Shown here: positions 10,899-43,186 of the stretch, one piece after another
Numbering within the stretch: the stretch's first letter is position 1
Layout of the letters: each line of letters starts with the position of its first letter
From: a virus
Taxonomy: Duplodnaviria > Heunggongvirae > Uroviricota > Caudoviricetes
IMG/VR virus record: IMGVR_UViG_2778260992_000008
Location: 1 to 56,203 of that record
Reading direction: 5' to 3' (one strand)
Length of the DNA stretch: 56,203 nucleotides
The notes under the pieces: model-generated
Databases searched by the model: none
Seen by the model: only the letters and a program-made list of their open reading frames with translations
What the model was told of the DNA's origin: nothing
Made by a program: the position numbers and the translations under genes

Positions 10899-11150
10899 AT
10901 GACAGCTACAACATTAAGCGAAAATAACGGCAGAGGTTTTCAGAGGACTGCGGAAAGTCTTGATGATAGTGACGTATTTGTTGATTTCGGCGGCGGTAGC
11001 TATGAATTCGAAACATCGGCTGGATGGGTAGATAAATGGCCTTTCCCAACGCGCCAGGAATTAAGCGAACGTAAATCATTTGGCGAAGATGCCGAACGCC
11101 TGGCGAATAATAAATGGCTTGATAAATTCATTACGGAGGGTGGCAAATGA
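10899..11150 (+). CDS. hypothetical protein (83 aa)
   Basis: ATG 10899 with RBS GAGGTG; in frame inside track ORF 10671-11150. Confidence 0.4.
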   Translation: MTATTLSENNGRGFQRTAESLDDSDVFVDFGGGSYEFETSAGWVDKWPFPTRQELSERKSFGEDAERLANNKWLDKFITEGGK

Positions 11151-11260
11151 ATCTCGCAAAAATTGCCGCATTGCTTGCGGCTGTAGCGGTGGCGGTGCTG
11201 TATCTCAGCGTATCGCTTTATATTACGGTGGCGATCATCAAACTGATTACTAATATGTGA
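11147..11260 (+). CDS. small hydrophobic peptide (37 aa)
   Basis: MNLAKIAALLAAVAVAVLYLSVSLYITVAIIKLITNM; ATGA overlap with upstream stop. Confidence 0.3.
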   Translation: MNLAKIAALLAAVAVAVLYLSVSLYITVAIIKLITNM

Positions 11261-11268
11261 GGCTAATT

Positions 11269-11388
11269 ATGAAAGTCGGTAAGGATATTGTAACGGTTGC
11301 GCTTTGCGTTATTTGTTTCCTGTTTACGGTTGTGTTTTGCGGAGCACTGGCGGCGGTGATTGGCTTTATTGGTAAAGGGTGGATGTGA
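11269..11388 (+). CDS. small hydrophobic peptide (39 aa)
   Basis: MKVGKDIVTVALCVICFLFTVVFCGALAAVIGFIGKGWM; RBS GTGAGG. Confidence 0.3.
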   Translation: MKVGKDIVTVALCVICFLFTVVFCGALAAVIGFIGKGWM

Positions 11389-12903: not shown

Positions 12904-13086
12904 ATGACAAACTTTGAACGTAACCACAAAAGCAAAGTAAACCCGCATTTCATCATTGAGCGCACGTTAGGCGGACTATTCGCGATCCTGGTCCCGGCGG
13001 CGGCTGTAATGCTCGTTTACATGGTCATCGACCTGATCATTAAAGCCTTTAATAACGGGATCTGTATGTACGCGGTTTGCTATTAA
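12904..13086 (+). CDS. small membrane protein (60 aa)
   Basis: RBS GGAGGG; hydrophobic core LGGLFAILVPAAAVMLVYMVIDLII. Confidence 0.4.
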   Translation: MTNFERNHKSKVNPHFIIERTLGGLFAILVPAAAVMLVYMVIDLIIKAFNNGICMYAVCY

Positions 13087-13097
13087 CGGGGTGCGAT

Positions 13098-13316
13098 ATG
13101 GAACGGGAAATCATGCTGTATTGTGTCGAAGGTGGCGTAGGTCCGGGCGCTTACGTCGCCGGGCGGAAATATCCAGCAAACGAAGTGCTAAGCCATGAAC
13201 AATGGCGGGAGGACGCTTATCACGTAACTGTATGGGGCGCGGACGTCCAGGGCGTCGAGATGATCGGCATCGAGATGTATTTAGGGCGCTTCGATTACGC
13301 GGTTATGGAGGCTTAA
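13098..13316 (+). CDS. hypothetical protein
   Basis: ATG 13098 with RBS GGGGTG; inside track ORF 13077-13316. Confidence 0.4.
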   Translation: MEREIMLYCVEGGVGPGAYVAGRKYPANEVLSHEQWREDAYHVTVWGADVQGVEMIGIEMYLGRFDYAVMEA

Positions 13317-13318
13317 TC

Positions 13319-13417
13319 ATGTGGCTGATTGATTTAATCCTGGCTTGCTGGTTGATTGTTCTGGTTGGTTTTGTCGGGTATTTCGCTTGGGAAGAGGGAA
13401 AACACAATGGACGCTGA
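13319..13417 (+). CDS. small hydrophobic peptide (32 aa)
   Basis: MWLIDLILACWLIVLVGFVGYFAWEEGKHNGR. Confidence 0.3.
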   Translation: MWLIDLILACWLIVLVGFVGYFAWEEGKHNGR

Positions 13418-13496
13418 AATGATCTTTATGGCTTGTTGCTGTGGGATCGTCGCGGTTGGTCTGTTTCTCCGCTGGGTGATTGAAAAATATTTATGA
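13407..13496 (+). CDS. small Cys-containing hydrophobic peptide (29 aa)
   Basis: MDAEMIFMACCCGIVAVGLFLRWVIEKYL; RBS AGAGGG; overlaps the previous mini-ORF. Confidence 0.25.
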   Translation: MDAEMIFMACCCGIVAVGLFLRWVIEKYL

Positions 13497-24819: not shown

Positions 24820-24882
24820 CCATAATCGCGCATAAAAAACAAATAGATTAAAATATTTCCTAACAATGCGAAATTGTATTCA

Positions 24883-24905
24883 CCCGGCATCGCGCCGGGT
24901 TTTTT
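24883..24905 (+). terminator. rho-independent terminator upstream of lysis cassette
   Basis: CCCGGC-ATCGC-GCCGGG hairpin followed by TTTTTT. Confidence 0.6.
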
Positions 24906-24925
24906 GCTTTGTTGGAGGTAAATCT

Positions 24926-25126
24926 ATGTTCGACAAAATACGGGAGGCGTGCGCGTATGTGACCGGGGCCGTAACTGCTTTTTTCGGCGCGATAACCATC
25001 AATGACGTTGCCGTCTTTGTGGGTATCTTATCAACCATAGGCACATTTGCCGTTAATTATTACTTCAAATCACAGGAGAACAAGCGAGCGCAAGAGGAAC
25101 ACGACGCGCGAATGGGGAATAAGTAA
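24926..25126 (+). CDS. holin (66 aa)
   Basis: RBS GGAGG; two hydrophobic helices and charged C-terminus; directly precedes endolysin. Confidence 0.5.
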
Positions 25127-25127
25127 C

Positions 25128-25619
25128 ATGATTAGCCAATCGCTGAAGAATAAAATTATTGCTGCGGCGGCTGGTGGGGCGATCGCTATTGCGGCGGTGA
25201 TGGTTAAACCATTAGAGGGCGTGGAGTACGATCCCTATCGTGATGTTATCGGTGTATGGACCGTTTGTTATGGTCACACCGGAAAAGACATCATGCTGGG
25301 TAAGACTTACACGCAATCAGAATGCGATGCTTTGTTAAACAAAGATCTCCACAAAACCGCAAAAGCGATTGACCCATATATTAAAGTCGAAATATCAGAT
25401 TTTACCCGCGCGGCGCTTTATTCATTCGCCTATAACGTAGGCGCTACCAACTTCAAAACATCAACCTTATTAAAACTACTCAACGATGGCAAGAAATCCG
25501 AAGCGTGCGCCCAGCTTAAACGCTGGATATATGCTGGTGGTCAAAAATGGCAAGGTTTAATCAACCGCCGTGATGTTGAATATGCCGTTTGTGAATGGGG
25601 GGAAACGTGGACAAGATAA
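25128..25619 (+). CDS. SAR endolysin, T4-type lysozyme family
   Basis: N-terminal signal-arrest-release helix [17 protein letters not shown] followed by [23 protein letters not shown] catalytic region. Confidence 0.75.
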
Positions 25620-26077
25620 AGGCGTTAATCATCGCCGTGATTGTTTGCATTGTTGCCGGACTCACCGCCGCGCTTTGTTACTACCAGTCAACCATAAACA
25701 CGCTACAGACTGAACTAACGACAACTCAAGGCGCATTAAAAACGGCAAGTAACACTATCCAGCAAATGAAGGATCGAAACGCCGAACTGTCAAAACTTGA
25801 TAAGAGGTATCACGATGAAATTAAAGCTATCAGGTCCGATATTGCCGATCTGCGCAGCGGTATTGATAGCGGCGCTATCAGGTTGCACGTCAACGCAATA
25901 CCCGTGCGAGTGCCCGACACCACCGGAACCGCCAGCAGCATTGATGGAGCCGCCTGTAGACTCACTTCCGACGCTGAATCGGCTTATCTATCCCTCAGAG
26001 AACAACTAAAAGAGAAAGACGCGAAGATTACCGGATTACAGAGCTACATCAAAACGCAGTGCTTACGCAAAGAATAA
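25595..26077 (+). CDS. i-spanin (Rz-like)
   Basis: N-terminal TM helix then coiled-coil periplasmic region; overlaps endolysin end (GTG at 25607 is an alternative start). Confidence 0.6.
25815..26009 (+). CDS. o-spanin (Rz1-like lipoprotein) nested in +1 frame of i-spanin
   Basis: Lipobox LSGC after signal [20 protein letters not shown]; Pro-rich mature part. Confidence 0.6.
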   Translation: MKLKLSGPILPICAAVLIAALSGCTSTQYPCECPTPPEPPAALMEPPVDSLPTLNRLIYPSENN

Positions 26078-26345
26078 CAGCGCGTGGACGTGTCGCCGTT
26101 TCCGCCAGCCAGCCATAACCGGGTCAATCCTTCCCGCGAGCGACGGCGGAATAGTCAAAAACACGTAATGCCGGATCATCCATCCCATTAACAGGTCGGC
26201 GCTACCTGGGCAGAAGAAAGTGCCATTCACCAATTTTATAAAATTCTGGAAACGGTACTGATGAAGCGCCGTTTTCAGTGTTTTATGTCATTCCTGCCGC
26301 TGTATAAACAGGAAGTAAAAGTAAACCAGACAGGAGATTATTCTG

Positions 26346-26888
26346 ATGGCTAAGGGTAAAGGCTTGAAATTGCCTCATTTCAAAGTACCGCTCTTTGAGC
26401 ATACAACAGTCTTCTTTTGCCCGACCCGCGAAATCTTCTATGAATTTTGCGAGCGTGCACATATTCCAATCGAACCTGATTTCGAACTGGCTGGCGGCCT
26501 GACTTTAACCTGTACAGGTGAGAACGGCGGCAATTTCTATGTTGTAGCTGTATTCGATCATGAGATGGGTACGCTAGTTCATGAATGCGCCCATAGTACA
26601 TTCCATGTATTAAGTGACGTGGGCGTACTGGCGACCACTGACGCAACTCATCCGGCGAATGAAACCTACGCCTACATGATTGGGCGCATGTTTGACACTT
26701 TCTTCCCGATCCTGGCTGAATCAAACGAAGCGGAAGTGGCAGCACAACAGGCGGCGGAAGTGGTAGAGCAAGCGTTAGAACAGGCAGAACAGCCGAAGGA
26801 AGAAGAAAAACCCGCGAAGAAAGGGAAACGTAAGCCGAAGGCAAAAGAAGCGCTTGTACCGCGCGTAATGAGCTTTAGACGGGGGTGA
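26346..26888 (+). CDS. hypothetical protein with HExxH motif and Lys/Glu-rich tail
   Basis: RBS CAGGAG; LVHECAHSTFH; C-terminus EEKPAKKGKRKPKAKE. Confidence 0.45.
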   Translation: MAKGKGLKLPHFKVPLFEHTTVFFCPTREIFYEFCERAHIPIEPDFELAGGLTLTCTGENGGNFYVVAVFDHEMGTLVHECAHSTFHVLSDVGVLATTDATHPANETYAYMIGRMFDTFFPILAESNEAEVAAQQAAEVVEQALEQAEQPKEEEKPAKKGKRKPKAKEALVPRVMSFRRG

Positions 26889-26890
26889 TC

Positions 26891-26962
26891 ATGGGCGACT
26901 TTCTGTTACTAATAGTTTTGTTATTTACTGGCCTTGCATTGCTCGATGTTATAACGAGGTAA
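26891..26962 (+). CDS. mini-ORF 1 of 7, single-helix hydrophobic peptide (23 aa)
   Basis: MGDFLLLIVLLFTGLALLDVITR; RBS GGGGGTGA. Confidence 0.35.
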   Translation: MGDFLLLIVLLFTGLALLDVITR

Positions 26963-26965
26963 CAT

Positions 26966-27061
26966 ATGGATGAGTGCATCATTGCCGGATTAATCGGAAT
27001 ATCTGTATTTCTGGTGGGCTTTGTTATTGCCGTGCTGATAACAGTAAAGAGTAAATTATGA
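26966..27061 (+). CDS. mini-ORF 2 of 7, hydrophobic peptide (31 aa)
   Basis: MDECIIAGLIGISVFLVGFVIAVLITVKSKL; RBS GAGGTAA. Confidence 0.35.
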   Translation: MDECIIAGLIGISVFLVGFVIAVLITVKSKL

Positions 27062-27132
27062 ACGCTTACGATCTCATCTGGTTGTTGGTGCTCATCGTAG
27101 GTATTGGCGTGAATATCTATAGATTATGGTGA
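27058..27132 (+). CDS. mini-ORF 3 of 7, hydrophobic peptide (24 aa)
   Basis: MNAYDLIWLLVLIVGIGVNIYRLW; ATGA overlap with mini-ORF 2. Confidence 0.35.
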   Translation: MNAYDLIWLLVLIVGIGVNIYRLW

Positions 27133-27136
27133 CGCA

Positions 27137-27211
27137 ATGGAGTTTTACGAAATTATAGCATGTGTAGCCTTTGCCTTTGTCCTGTATTTCTGGTGGAAGA
27201 ATGTTGTATAG
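27137..27211 (+). CDS. mini-ORF 4 of 7, hydrophobic peptide (24 aa)
   Basis: MEFYEIIACVAFAFVLYFWWKNVV; RBS GGTGA. Confidence 0.35.
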   Translation: MEFYEIIACVAFAFVLYFWWKNVV

Positions 27212-27219
27212 GTGAAAGC

Positions 27220-27300
27220 ATGAACGCATACGAAATGCTATTGCTGGTGGCTGTTATTGCAGTTATTGCCGTTGATTTTTATCGAGGGTTAAAAAGATGA
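27220..27300 (+). CDS. mini-ORF 5 of 7, hydrophobic peptide (26 aa)
   Basis: MNAYEMLLLVAVIAVIAVDFYRGLKR; RBS AGGTGA; paralog of mini-ORF 3. Confidence 0.35.
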   Translation: MNAYEMLLLVAVIAVIAVDFYRGLKR

Positions 27301-27365
27301 GAGAGTCAGATTTTATCTATATGGTTTTAGCTATTGTCTTTATCGCCCTGGCTTTCGCAATTTAG
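27297..27365 (+). CDS. mini-ORF 6 of 7, hydrophobic peptide (22 aa)
   Basis: MRESDFIYMVLAIVFIALAFAI; ATGA overlap with mini-ORF 5. Confidence 0.3.
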   Translation: MRESDFIYMVLAIVFIALAFAI

Positions 27366-27377
27366 CAGGAATAAGCA

Positions 27378-27461
27378 ATGAAAGAGCTATTCGACTGGTT
27401 GGAAGTATTAACATACTGCGCAAGTTTTGTAGCTTGCGTATATATCATCAATAGATATTGA
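27378..27461 (+). CDS. mini-ORF 7 of 7, hydrophobic peptide (27 aa)
   Basis: MKELFDWLEVLTYCASFVACVYIINRY; RBS AGGA. Confidence 0.35.
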   Translation: MKELFDWLEVLTYCASFVACVYIINRY

Positions 27462-27472
27462 GAGGTGACATT

Positions 27473-27958
27473 ATGGCCCGCACTAAAAAGGCAAAGGCTG
27501 ACGATAAAAAGCCAGCCGCTAAAAAGGTGGGCCGTCCGCATGGATATACCGAAGAGAAAGCATTAGAGATCTGCGAACTGGTAGCGGATGGTCAGAGTAT
27601 TAACAAAATATCGAAAATGCCTGGGATGCCGAACCGTTCAACGATTCTCAAATGGTTTCGGGACGTGCCGGAGTTTTCCACCATGTACGCGCGAGCAAAG
27701 GAAATAGGCTTTGAAGTATTGGCAGATGAAATCATCGATCTGGCTGATGCCGAAGTAAACACGGATAAAGACCAGTTGCGCCGCCATCAACTGATGATTG
27801 ATACCCGTAAATGGCTACTGGCAAAACTGCAACCGCGCAAATATGGTGAGCGCGTCACACAGGAGATCGTTGGTAACAAGGAGGAAGCGCCCGTCCAGAT
27901 TGAAGTCACGAAAGAAGAGATCGCCCGCATCGTCCAGGAAGTAGAAGATGAGGTGTGA
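27473..27958 (+). CDS. terminase small subunit
   Basis: RBS GAGAGGTGA; basic N-terminus with HTH (GQSINKISKMPGMPNRSTILKWF); directly upstream of large terminase. Confidence 0.6.
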   Translation: MARTKKAKADDKKPAAKKVGRPHGYTEEKALEICELVADGQSINKISKMPGMPNRSTILKWFRDVPEFSTMYARAKEIGFEVLADEIIDLADAEVNTDKDQLRRHQLMIDTRKWLLAKLQPRKYGERVTQEIVGNKEEAPVQIEVTKEEIARIVQEVEDEV

Positions 27959-27960
27959 TT

Positions 27961-29433
27961 ATGTTGACCATCAAAGAAAAGGTTATTCAGTCAAAATGCG
28001 AAAAAGATGGCCTGTTCTTCAACCGTTATTTCTACAAGCAGGCAAACGGTACGAAGATGTTAATATCAGGCCATCAAGTAGCCATCCATGATGCGCTACA
28101 ACGTGTTATTAATGGTGAAATTACCCGCCTCATCATTAACATCCCCCCAGGGTATGGTAAAACCGCGATCGCAACAATCAATATGATGGCGCGGTCCCTC
28201 GCAATAAGTCCCCGCACACGATTTCTTCACGTTTCCTATTCCGACAACCTTGCGTTACTCAATTCCTCGACAGTCAGAAACATGATTTGCTCGCAGGAGT
28301 ACCAGAAATTATGGCCCATGAAGATCCGTAATGACGCCAATTCTAAATCAATGTGGTGGACAGAACATGGCGGCGGGGTATATGCCGCATCATCACACGG
28401 TCAGATTACGGGTTTTCGTGCTGGTTACATGGAGCCAGGCTTTAACGGCGCGATGATTATCGACGACCCATTAAAGCCCGCTGACGCTTACTCTGATGTG
28501 ATGCGGGATAAAGTTAACACCAACTACAACGATACGCTTGCTTCACGTCTGGCTGTGCAAACAACGCCAGTCATCGTCATTATGCAGCGCATCCACTACG
28601 ATGATTTGTCCGGCTACCTGTTACGTGGCGGTAGTGGTGAGAAATGGCATCACCTTTGCCTGCCAGTGAAGATCGACAACAGTCTTGACTATTGGGATCT
28701 GTACCCGGAAAACGAATTCGCTATTCCTGTTCCTCACAACCTGCCGGACGGCTGGCTATGGTTGCATAAGCATAGTGATAAAGATGAATCAACTCTTAAA
28801 TCACATCGCCGAACATTCGAAGCTCAATATATGCAGCGTCCGCGCAAGTTCGATCAAGAGGGCGCATTGTGGTCGGAAGCAATGATAACCGCCGCGCACA
28901 GAATGCAGATAACGCAGGACAGGATCCGCACGGTGATAGCAATCGACCCGGCAACAACATCATCGGAAGCGTCGGACGAAACCGGGATCGTGGCGTGTTC
29001 CGCTTATGGTGGCGGCAAGTGCGCTCAGTATTCTGTAGACGGTGACTACTCAGGCCGCATGTCTCCTAACGAATGGGCGCAAGCCTCAATGAACGCTTAC
29101 AACATCCATGAAGCTGACGCGATAGTTATCGAAACCAACCAGGGCGGCGAAATGGCAGAGGCCACGCTACGTAACGCCGGATTCAAAGGCCGCATTGTTA
29201 AGGTGCACGCAAGCAAGGGTAAATTCGCCCGCGCCGAGCCAATATCAGCACTGTATGCACAAGGAAGGGTGGCCCACACAGGCAGCCTGTACATGCTGGA
29301 AAATCAAATGATGGAATACGTGCCAGCTACCGCCAAAAAATCCCCGGACCGACTCGACGCTATGGTGTGGGGCATCACTGAATTGAGTCAGCCTCAAGCT
29401 ATGGGCCTTATGTTACCGAAGCGCCTACGCTGA
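27961..29433 (+). CDS. terminase large subunit
   Basis: Walker A-like PPGYGKT, ATPase core and C-terminal nuclease-like region (IVIETNQGGEM); start ATG 27961 after GAGGTG. Confidence 0.85.
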   Translation: MLTIKEKVIQSKCEKDGLFFNRYFYKQANGTKMLISGHQVAIHDALQRVINGEITRLIINIPPGYGKTAIATINMMARSLAISPRTRFLHVSYSDNLALLNSSTVRNMICSQEYQKLWPMKIRNDANSKSMWWTEHGGGVYAASSHGQITGFRAGYMEPGFNGAMIIDDPLKPADAYSDVMRDKVNTNYNDTLASRLAVQTTPVIVIMQRIHYDDLSGYLLRGGSGEKWHHLCLPVKIDNSLDYWDLYPENEFAIPVPHNLPDGWLWLHKHSDKDESTLKSHRRTFEAQYMQRPRKFDQEGALWSEAMITAAHRMQITQDRIRTVIAIDPATTSSEASDETGIVACSAYGGGKCAQYSVDGDYSGRMSPNEWAQASMNAYNIHEADAIVIETNQGGEMAEATLRNAGFKGRIVKVHASKGKFARAEPISALYAQGRVAHTGSLYMLENQMMEYVPATAKKSPDRLDAMVWGITELSQPQAMGLMLPKRLR

Positions 29434-42965: not shown

Positions 42966-43103
42966 TTAGAAGTTCATGTGCATCAAGCCCATTGGGTGAG
43001 CGTGCGCCATGTTCTCAGCTATTGCGCACCAATCCCAATCCGCAGCGTGCACGCCAAATACTATCAAGCCCATTGCGATTAGCGCTAAAACTTCGATTTT
43101 CAT
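42966..43103 (-). CDS. small secreted His/Met-rich peptide (45 aa)
   Basis: MKIEVLALIAMGLIVFGVHA signal-like N-terminus then ADWDWCAIAENMAHAHPMGLMHMNF; RBS GGGGTGAACC. Confidence 0.35.
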   Translation of the reverse strand: MKIEVLALIAMGLIVFGVHAADWDWCAIAENMAHAHPMGLMHMNF

Positions 43104-43114
43104 GGTTCACCCCA

Positions 43115-43186
43115 TTAATTCAGAAAGGCATAAACGATGGCAATCGCGCCAGCCACTACCAAAACATTTTCGATTACTTCATCCAT
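43115..43186 (-). CDS. small hydrophobic peptide (23 aa)
   Basis: MDEVIENVLVVAGAIAIVYAFLN; RBS GGCGGTGA. Confidence 0.3.
   Translation of the reverse strand: MDEVIENVLVVAGAIAIVYAFLN

Follow-up and report, generated by a model that had tools for sequence, protein, structure and literature searches.

What are seven open reading frames (ORFs) of 22-31 codons, each specifying about one transmembrane-length helix, doing in a row directly before the small terminase gene of a tailed phage? The question is raised by a 56,203-nucleotide (nt) stretch of viral DNA (IMG/VR record IMGVR_UViG_2778260992_000008, positions 1 to 56,203; the window, in what follows), a member of the mEp021/mEpimmI group of temperate Escherichia coli siphoviruses (PMC11893012). 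Positions 26891-27461 of its + strand are filled by seven ATG-started ORFs, directly followed by the gene for an Sf6-type small terminase subunit (TerS). The initial annotation of this DNA, made from the letters alone, held that these are separate mini-genes rather than the remains of one disrupted gene. Comparison with related genomes bears this out and extends it: the pattern of substitutions shows that the seven mini-ORFs are genuine protein-coding genes under purifying selection on amino-acid sequence, and the array proves to be one instance of a lineage-specific row of 3-13 genes carried by all examined mEp021-like phages.

How is the row built? All seven ORFs lie on the + strand where the initial annotation had placed them, with the translations it had given, and each is named here by its peptide family; brackets give, for some, the ratio of non-synonymous to synonymous substitution (dN/dS) and the share of 54 related loci that carry the family. 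Mini-gene 1 (family P, 26891-26962) encodes a 23-residue peptide, MGDFLLLIVLLFTGLALLDVITR, behind the Shine-Dalgarno (SD) sequence GGGGGTGA, which pairs with the anti-SD at -12.9 kcal/mol. Mini-gene 2 (family B, 26966-27061; dN/dS 0.20; 44/54 loci) encodes 31 residues, MDECIIAGLIGISVFLVGFVIAVLITVKSKL, and mini-gene 3 (family N, 27058-27132; dN/dS 0.12; 8/54 loci), which starts within an ATGA overlap with mini-gene 2 at 27058, encodes 24 residues, MNAYDLIWLLVLIVGIGVNIYRLW. Mini-gene 4 (family T, 27137-27211; 24 residues, MEFYEIIACVAFAFVLYFWWKNVV) has an orthologue in locus L029; its last 30 nt are identical to those of a family called slot H while the helix core is different, and on this comparison it is a divergent allele of slot H. 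Mini-gene 5 (family C, 27220-27300; 26 residues, MNAYEMLLLVAVIAVIAVDFYRGLKR; dN/dS 0.22; 52/54 loci) lies in an ORF whose first ATG is at 27160 (46 residues, overlapping ORF4), but the conserved start, preceded by the SD AGGTGA, is at 27220. Mini-gene 6 (family j, 27297-27365; 22 residues, MRESDFIYMVLAIVFIALAFAI) starts in a second ATGA overlap, with mini-gene 5 at 27297, and mini-gene 7 (family E, 27378-27461; 27 residues, MKELFDWLEVLTYCASFVACVYIINRY; dN/dS 0.16; 54/54 loci) is always the final gene of the array, its stop overlapping the SD of the TerS gene. In the relatives, family P has an orthologue in L029 and identical copies in L103, L105, and L106; in L104 (1427-1489), an assembly of a sequencing run, it is frameshifted so that its C-terminal half is altered, while the other six genes are unchanged. 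This frameshift reflects either weaker constraint on P or an assembly error; mini-gene 1 is a rare cassette and the weakest supported of the seven.

The remaining structural claims of the initial annotation also stand. The starts fall at positions 2, 2, 1, 2, 1, 0, and 0 modulo 3, and thus in three frames; no ORF of 60 residues or more exists on either strand within 26889-27457, the longest being a 59-residue ORF on the - strand that is not conserved. Most starts had been credited with an SD-like sequence, and the duplex energies with the anti-SD (in order, -12.9, -7.3, -2.4, -5.8, -6.7, -6.4, and -4.3 kcal/mol) single out as weak only ORF3, whose start overlaps the ORF2 stop. The two peptides taken for paralogs, those of ORF3 and ORF5, resemble each other more than composition-preserving shuffles do (p ≤ 0.0005). 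Direct DNA repeats longer than 15 nt are absent from the array, which argues against recent tandem duplication; the similarity, together with an acidic residue at position 5, points to old paralogy or shared constraint.

Could such a row arise by chance? When the interval was shuffled 5000 times with its dinucleotide content preserved, hydrophobic ATG ORFs that do not overlap formed chains of at most 3, with a mean longest chain of 0.39; the observed chain is 6, or 7 if the conserved internal ATG of ORF5 is used. Similar small ORFs elsewhere on the + strand of the window number 16 in 55.6 kb (about 0.3 per kb), as compared to 7 in the 0.57-kb array (12 per kb). The more telling evidence comes from the relatives. 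One reference DNA sequence per family, for 20 peptide families, was used to collect ungapped homologous segments of at least 70% identity, whether or not they were open; of the 502 segments, 427 keep start, stop, and frame. The common families score 50/50, 50/51 (family C), 48/49, and 34/34, and length variants of two families account for most of the non-intact segments. By the Nei-Gojobori method, pooled dN/dS is 0.205 when the alignments are read in the ORF frame but 0.93 and 1.61 when they are shifted into the other two, and each of the 18 families with non-synonymous variation has a value of 0.12-0.34; for comparison, the neighbor genes in the same genomes yield 0.12 (TerS) and 0.06 (the upstream gene, which encodes a protein with an HExxH motif). 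Polymorphic columns fall at codon positions 1, 2, and 3 in a 135:81:249 pattern, and within the ORFs 52% of second codon positions are T and 36% of first positions are G. Conserved starts pair with the anti-SD at a mean of -6.4 kcal/mol, as compared to -2.9 for other ATGs in the region (Mann-Whitney p 1e-34). Neighboring genes are almost always -8 to +18 nt apart, most commonly -4 and +8; the layout is operon-like, and at such spacing translation is probably coupled along the row.

One intact longer gene at this place in related genomes would, by the initial annotation, have counted against separate mini-genes. Each of the seven mini-genes has an intact orthologue in at least one other genome, substitutions are frame-specific, and no relative carries one longer gene, or any fused form, at this site. 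A query of the seven concatenated peptides against a collection of 5.8 billion proteins matched only P0121, a 139-residue product of an 808-nt ENA metagenome contig that reads through three mini-genes (families C, g, and j). P0121 has W where its relatives have a stop, and is apparently a false fusion, produced by a gene call that treats TGA as a sense codon. A single disrupted larger gene was therefore rejected as the identity of the array.

How widespread is the row? The synteny search suggested by the initial annotation covers 54 loci from E. coli phages and prophages: 7 GenBank phages, 46 close relatives among 51 IMG/VR loci found via TerS, and one diverged relative whose HExxH protein is only 60% identical. 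In all 54, a row of this kind lies between the HExxH and TerS genes, with 3-13 genes (median 9) in 0.3-1.1 kb. About 20 peptide families occur, in the invariant order [K/L/P/Q/O]-B-N-S-A-H/T-R-D-C-J-F-G-I-j-M-E, and make up 42 architectures, of which the window (P-B-N-T-C-j-E) is one and a natural minimal array, K-B-E, found in one contig, is another. Family E is present in 54 loci, C in 52, A in 51, F in 50, and B in 44; the remaining families are present in 2-38. Several E. coli assemblies carry such an array as well; in two assemblies it is 100% identical to that of the window. Among 5426 complete E. coli genomes, 34 have matches to parts of the window's array. The five IMG/VR loci with a distant TerS (30-50% identity) have no mini-ORF row, and in the P22-like phage ST64T a homologue of the HExxH protein occupies the same slot, followed by a soluble 134-residue protein unrelated to the mini-ORF peptides. 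Searches of the array by tblastn/blastn against 50,697 phage records and 72,556 plasmids return only the seven mEp-group phages and no plasmid, and a degenerate DNA pattern for family C matches only contigs of the same group in IMG/VR. Two scans of one-genome-per-species bacterial contigs by TerS alignment found nothing, although they used few patterns and are weak evidence of absence outside E. coli. Within the collections searched, the array is, as far as these sequence matches go, confined to the mEp021-like group.

What do the peptides look like? The 196 unique ones are 20-47 residues long (median 24). An Asp or Glu is found within the first eight residues in 90% of them, and an acidic residue exactly at position 5 in 13 of 24 family or subfamily consensus sequences; the median uncharged core of 18 residues is flanked by a net charge of -1.2 on the N side and +0.6 on the C side. 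The claim that each of the seven products in the window is essentially one transmembrane-length helix holds: all have a 15-residue segment with a mean Kyte-Doolittle hydropathy of at least 2.0, their longest uncharged stretch spans 13-26 residues, and the flank that follows the core is 0-8 residues long with a net charge of 0 to +2 (family M, which is not in the window, has a C flank of 11 residues and +4). An acidic N flank combined with a neutral or basic C flank predicts, by the positive-inside rule, single-pass inner-membrane microproteins with a periplasmic N-terminus and a cytoplasmic C-terminus. With at most 50 residues, a predicted membrane-spanning helix, and evidence for a gene, the products are classed as small single-pass membrane microproteins. 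Almost nothing of them would lie outside the bilayer, so any activity would have to be exerted within the membrane. Searches of Pfam, PHROGs, NCBIfam, and PADLOC assign no significant family to any of the peptides.

When are these peptides made? The array sits between genes for lysis and for DNA packaging, all on the same strand. Upstream are a class II-type holin (phrog_20) and an endolysin, at 24866-25619, then an Rz/Rz1 spanin pair, a 270-nt gap (26078-26345), and the HExxH gene; the array begins 1.27 kb beyond the endolysin. Downstream, as the initial annotation had expected of a terminase, come the TerS gene (27473-27958, +; PF20901, E 9e-37), with a strong SD of its own (-10.1 kcal/mol), and the gene for the large terminase (27955-29433). 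Simple consensus scans of both strands of the array detect neither promoter-like nor terminator-like sites, and Rfam at E ≤ 1 reports no family in 25500-28500 except a chance snoRNA match. Given the shared strand and the lack of detected internal signals, the array is most likely expressed late, on a transcript that also covers the lysis and packaging genes. For the mEp group, a Q-lambda-like system of late antitermination has been reported (PMC11893012).

What, then, would a phage gain from up to 13 different membrane helices? Cassettes are gained and lost between otherwise near-identical phages, which suggests that most of them are individually dispensable and reshuffled between phages. The slot between the lysis and terminase genes is a known site of accessory genes in lambdoid and P22-like phages. 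Dispensable cassettes that nevertheless each keep their sequence favor specific helix-helix binding over non-specific membrane damage. We therefore lean, with modest confidence, toward reading the products of this polycistronic row as late-made accessory intramembrane modulators: each peptide would span the inner membrane once and would bind a specific host or phage membrane protein by sequence-specific helix-helix contact, the set acting as modulators and not as generic membrane poisons. Candidate targets would be the holin/lysis machinery, host transporters or entry channels, and membrane-embedded host defense effectors. A bolder version is possible but distinctly more tentative: the array could be a recombination-shuffled arsenal in which each helix is tuned to one host membrane protein, such as an abortive-infection effector in the membrane, the DNA-entry channel used by rival phages, or a transporter, and in which phages would exchange cassettes to match the hosts and competitors that they meet. 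If this were true, phages would have their own equivalent of papillomavirus E5, in as many as 13 versions at once, and a hitherto unrecognized class of counter-defense or exclusion genes, invisible to current annotation.

Several observations weigh against the modulator reading. Variable positions show no significant helical periodicity in a test for a conserved face (Fisher p 0.105), so that the idea of a specific interface has no positive support beyond purifying selection. Families E, C, A, and F are nearly universal, and “accessory” thus misdescribes part of the array; family P, the first gene of the row in the window, is rare and frameshifted in one relative. A difficulty for the proposed transcription unit is that relatives have annotated (predicted) rho-independent terminators within the gap of 270 nt, and the promoter and terminator scans were simple consensus scans only.

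Precedents for the proposed mode of action exist among single-helix microproteins of at most 50 residues, such as MgrB, AcrZ, MgtS, CydX, and KdpF, and, by analogy, papillomavirus E5. The MgrB-type regulators act by binding a larger membrane protein within the bilayer (see also the review PMC12648545). They share sequence-specific conservation of the helix with the array peptides, but are encoded by single genes and have a known partner, whereas the array lines up as many as 13 different ones in a phage late region; searches of family libraries found no sequence similarity between the two. Another likeness is to the coats of filamentous phages. Their coat peptides are 32-44 residues long and come from adjacent, overlapping, translationally coupled genes, and the Pf3 coat protein has its N-terminus outside and its C-terminus inside. 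The Pf3 major coat protein and Ff g7p/g9p thus resemble the array peptides in their single span, acidic N-tail outside, and neutral or basic C-terminus, the predicted topology being similar; however, they are virion parts of filamentous phages, whereas the window phage is tailed, with genes for terminase, portal, and tail, and the family libraries reveal no sequence similarity. The mEp group has siphovirus morphology (PMC11893012).

The main rival to the modulator reading gives the peptides a role in the timing of lysis: building up late in the inner membrane, they would determine when the holin fires, either by binding it or by reducing the proton-motive force. Holins are known to be triggered by depolarization, the array lies on the same strand 0.8 kb downstream of the holin-endolysin-spanin cassette, and ORF4 has sub-threshold matches to holin helices (PF04688, E 0.009, 16.6 bits with a cut-off of 27; phrog_263, E 0.056). 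Abundant hydrophobic peptides of this size, exemplified by type I toxins, do depolarize membranes (PMC2887945). Yet the phage already has a full lysis cassette, and between this and the array lie a conserved non-coding gap of 270 nt and a non-lysis gene; 3-13 peptides in 42 architectures far exceed any known set of lysis regulators, generic depolarization needs no sequence-specific purifying selection, and the ORF4 matches, being below threshold, reflect hydrophobic composition; we regard a lysis clock as rather unlikely. An outright holin or antiholin identity was rejected on the usual criteria: there is no above-threshold family match, no highly charged C-terminal domain, and no adjacency to the endolysin gene. 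Holins are usually 60-150 residues long, with a charged cytoplasmic tail, and encoded next to the endolysin gene, whereas the array peptides have 20-47 residues, are mostly tail-less, and are separated from the endolysin gene by a spanin gene, the non-coding gap, and another gene, in a phage that already has a holin. The “holin-like” small membrane proteins of actinophage lysis cassettes are similar in being phage-encoded and near lysis genes, and several can occur together (PMC9671378).

Perhaps the peptides are by-products, and it is translation itself that matters? The row could pass ribosomes to TerS by coupling or tune TerS expression, as the tight spacing and ATGA overlaps might suggest, all the more so since gene E, present in 54/54 loci, always stops within the SD of TerS, 10-11 nt ahead of the TerS start. 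This role alone is improbable because the amino-acid sequences are conserved in frame (dN/dS 0.12-0.34), which coupling does not require; nor would coupling explain the transmembrane architecture common to all products, the strong SD that TerS has of its own, or a cistron number that varies from 3 to 13 without evident constraint. Two further explanations are less probable still. One is a cluster akin to type I toxin-antitoxin loci, in which hydrophobic toxins held in check by antisense RNAs would stabilize the prophage or cause abortive infection. The peptides do resemble Ibs, ShoB, and Zor-type toxins in size and hydrophobicity, all seven have fewer than 70 residues and one transmembrane region, as specified for such toxins, and tandem occurrence served as a search criterion for them (PMC2887945). 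The tandem loci of E. coli (Ibs/Sib, Ldr/Rdl, and ZorO/OrzO) likewise encode 18-35 residues with about one hydrophobic helix, in several copies side by side, and are routinely missed by annotation (PMC2887945). However, each of these loci is transcribed on its own, with a long leader and an antisense RNA gene, and whole loci are duplicated at the DNA level, whereas the array is one operon with SD sites, embedded between conserved genes of a phage operon, in which genes are 2-12 nt apart or overlap without room for individual promoters or long 5′ leaders. A consensus scan finds no sigma-70-like site on the - strand of the array, Rfam no antitoxin RNA, and no whole locus is repeated; on these grounds a type I identity was rejected. 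The other, no more credible, is that nothing here is functional, the row being chance ORFs in a T-rich spacer or a decayed gene for a larger membrane protein. The region is indeed blank in RefSeq and in the mEp021 GenBank record, and the peptides match no protein family; but shuffles never reach the observed chain, selection is frame-specific, the ORFs are intact across 54 loci and have SD sites at their real starts, they occupy three frames, and no relative has a fused ancestor.

The neighborhood of the array has features of its own. The HExxH gene (26346-26888, +; 180 residues, HECAH motif, phrog_1365), which a dN/dS of 0.06 places under strong purifying selection, ends in a TGA 2 nt before the ORF1 ATG and is directly upstream of the array in related loci. 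A Pfam search gives no match for its product and a PDB sequence search nothing, while one source names a 60%-identical relative “PolyVal metallopeptidase superfamily”. P22-like phages have homologues of 37-44% identity: ST64T orf-129, which likewise lies in the lysis-to-terminase slot, one in epsilon34, and HK620 hkcC, located in another region. The idea that the HExxH gene and the array are functionally linked was set aside, as P22-like phages possess the gene, in this slot or elsewhere, but no array. The 270-nt gap between the spanin and HExxH genes has no convincing ORF, yet most of its columns are at least 90% identical across 23 distinct relative sequences; within it are a GC-rich segment and a weak hairpin with a T run after it, and the gap could be a regulatory site of the late transcript or a packaging site. 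Just upstream of the holin coding region, at 24882-24900 (+), is a strong terminator-like hairpin (7 pairs, 6 of them GC, then a T run), which recalls the position of the terminator overridden by late antitermination in lambda. In mEp013, a gene for an HNH endonuclease is inserted between the HExxH gene and the array (L007, 1437-1922), and in a metagenome relative (L059, 2752-3273) one lies between the endolysin and spanin genes; their differing sites suggest mobile, homing-type insertions in the region.

Further single-helix small ORFs are found elsewhere in the window. On the + strand of the early region they occupy 11147-11260, 11269-11388, 12904-13086, 13202-13417, and 13407-13496; two of these, of 37 and 39 residues, are adjacent, and a 29-residue peptide, MDAEMIFMACCCGIVAVGLFLRWVIEKYL, has the acidic start, helix, and basic tail of the array peptides. 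A pair of small hydrophobic ORFs is also present on the - strand, at 42966-43103 (45 residues) and 43115-43186 (23 residues); the latter, MDEVIENVLVVAGAIAIVYAFLN, again combines an acidic start with a helix.

Why has the row escaped attention? Only mini-gene 2, with its 31 residues, is long enough among the seven to be called by standard gene callers, and the region is left empty in RefSeq and in the GenBank record of mEp021. A few GenBank records annotated with PHANOTATE list some array ORFs as “hypothetical protein”, often with wrong boundaries: in mEp010_80 (L003, 2431-2634), L001 (2318-2521), and others, mini-ORFs are extended upstream to non-ATG starts, overlapping and hiding the neighbor mini-gene, and one such PHANOTATE-based call of 68 residues spans slots H and D. 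With calls extended in this way, the deposited annotations cover the array only in part and differ from record to record. Small membrane proteins of phages are familiar as such; what appears to be undescribed is a tailed-phage operon of fixed order and variable content whose peptides, of 20-47 residues, number up to 13. A literature search found no comparable array described, and the paper on the mEp group does not mention small or transmembrane ORFs (PMC11893012).

The array is a concrete case of how length cut-offs in gene calling hide whole sets of phage genes, here from a class, the single-helix small membrane proteins, that is recognized but under-counted. Should the peptides bind specific membrane targets, they could be put to use, as tools or as leads, in the modulation of E. 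coli membrane proteins. A group of coliphages prevalent in the human gut spends 0.3-1.1 kb of a compact genome on up to 13 such genes, and the roughly 20 natural families of minimal transmembrane peptides, complete with variants that have gained or lost individual members, are a ready-made system in which to study the roles of these proteins in infection.

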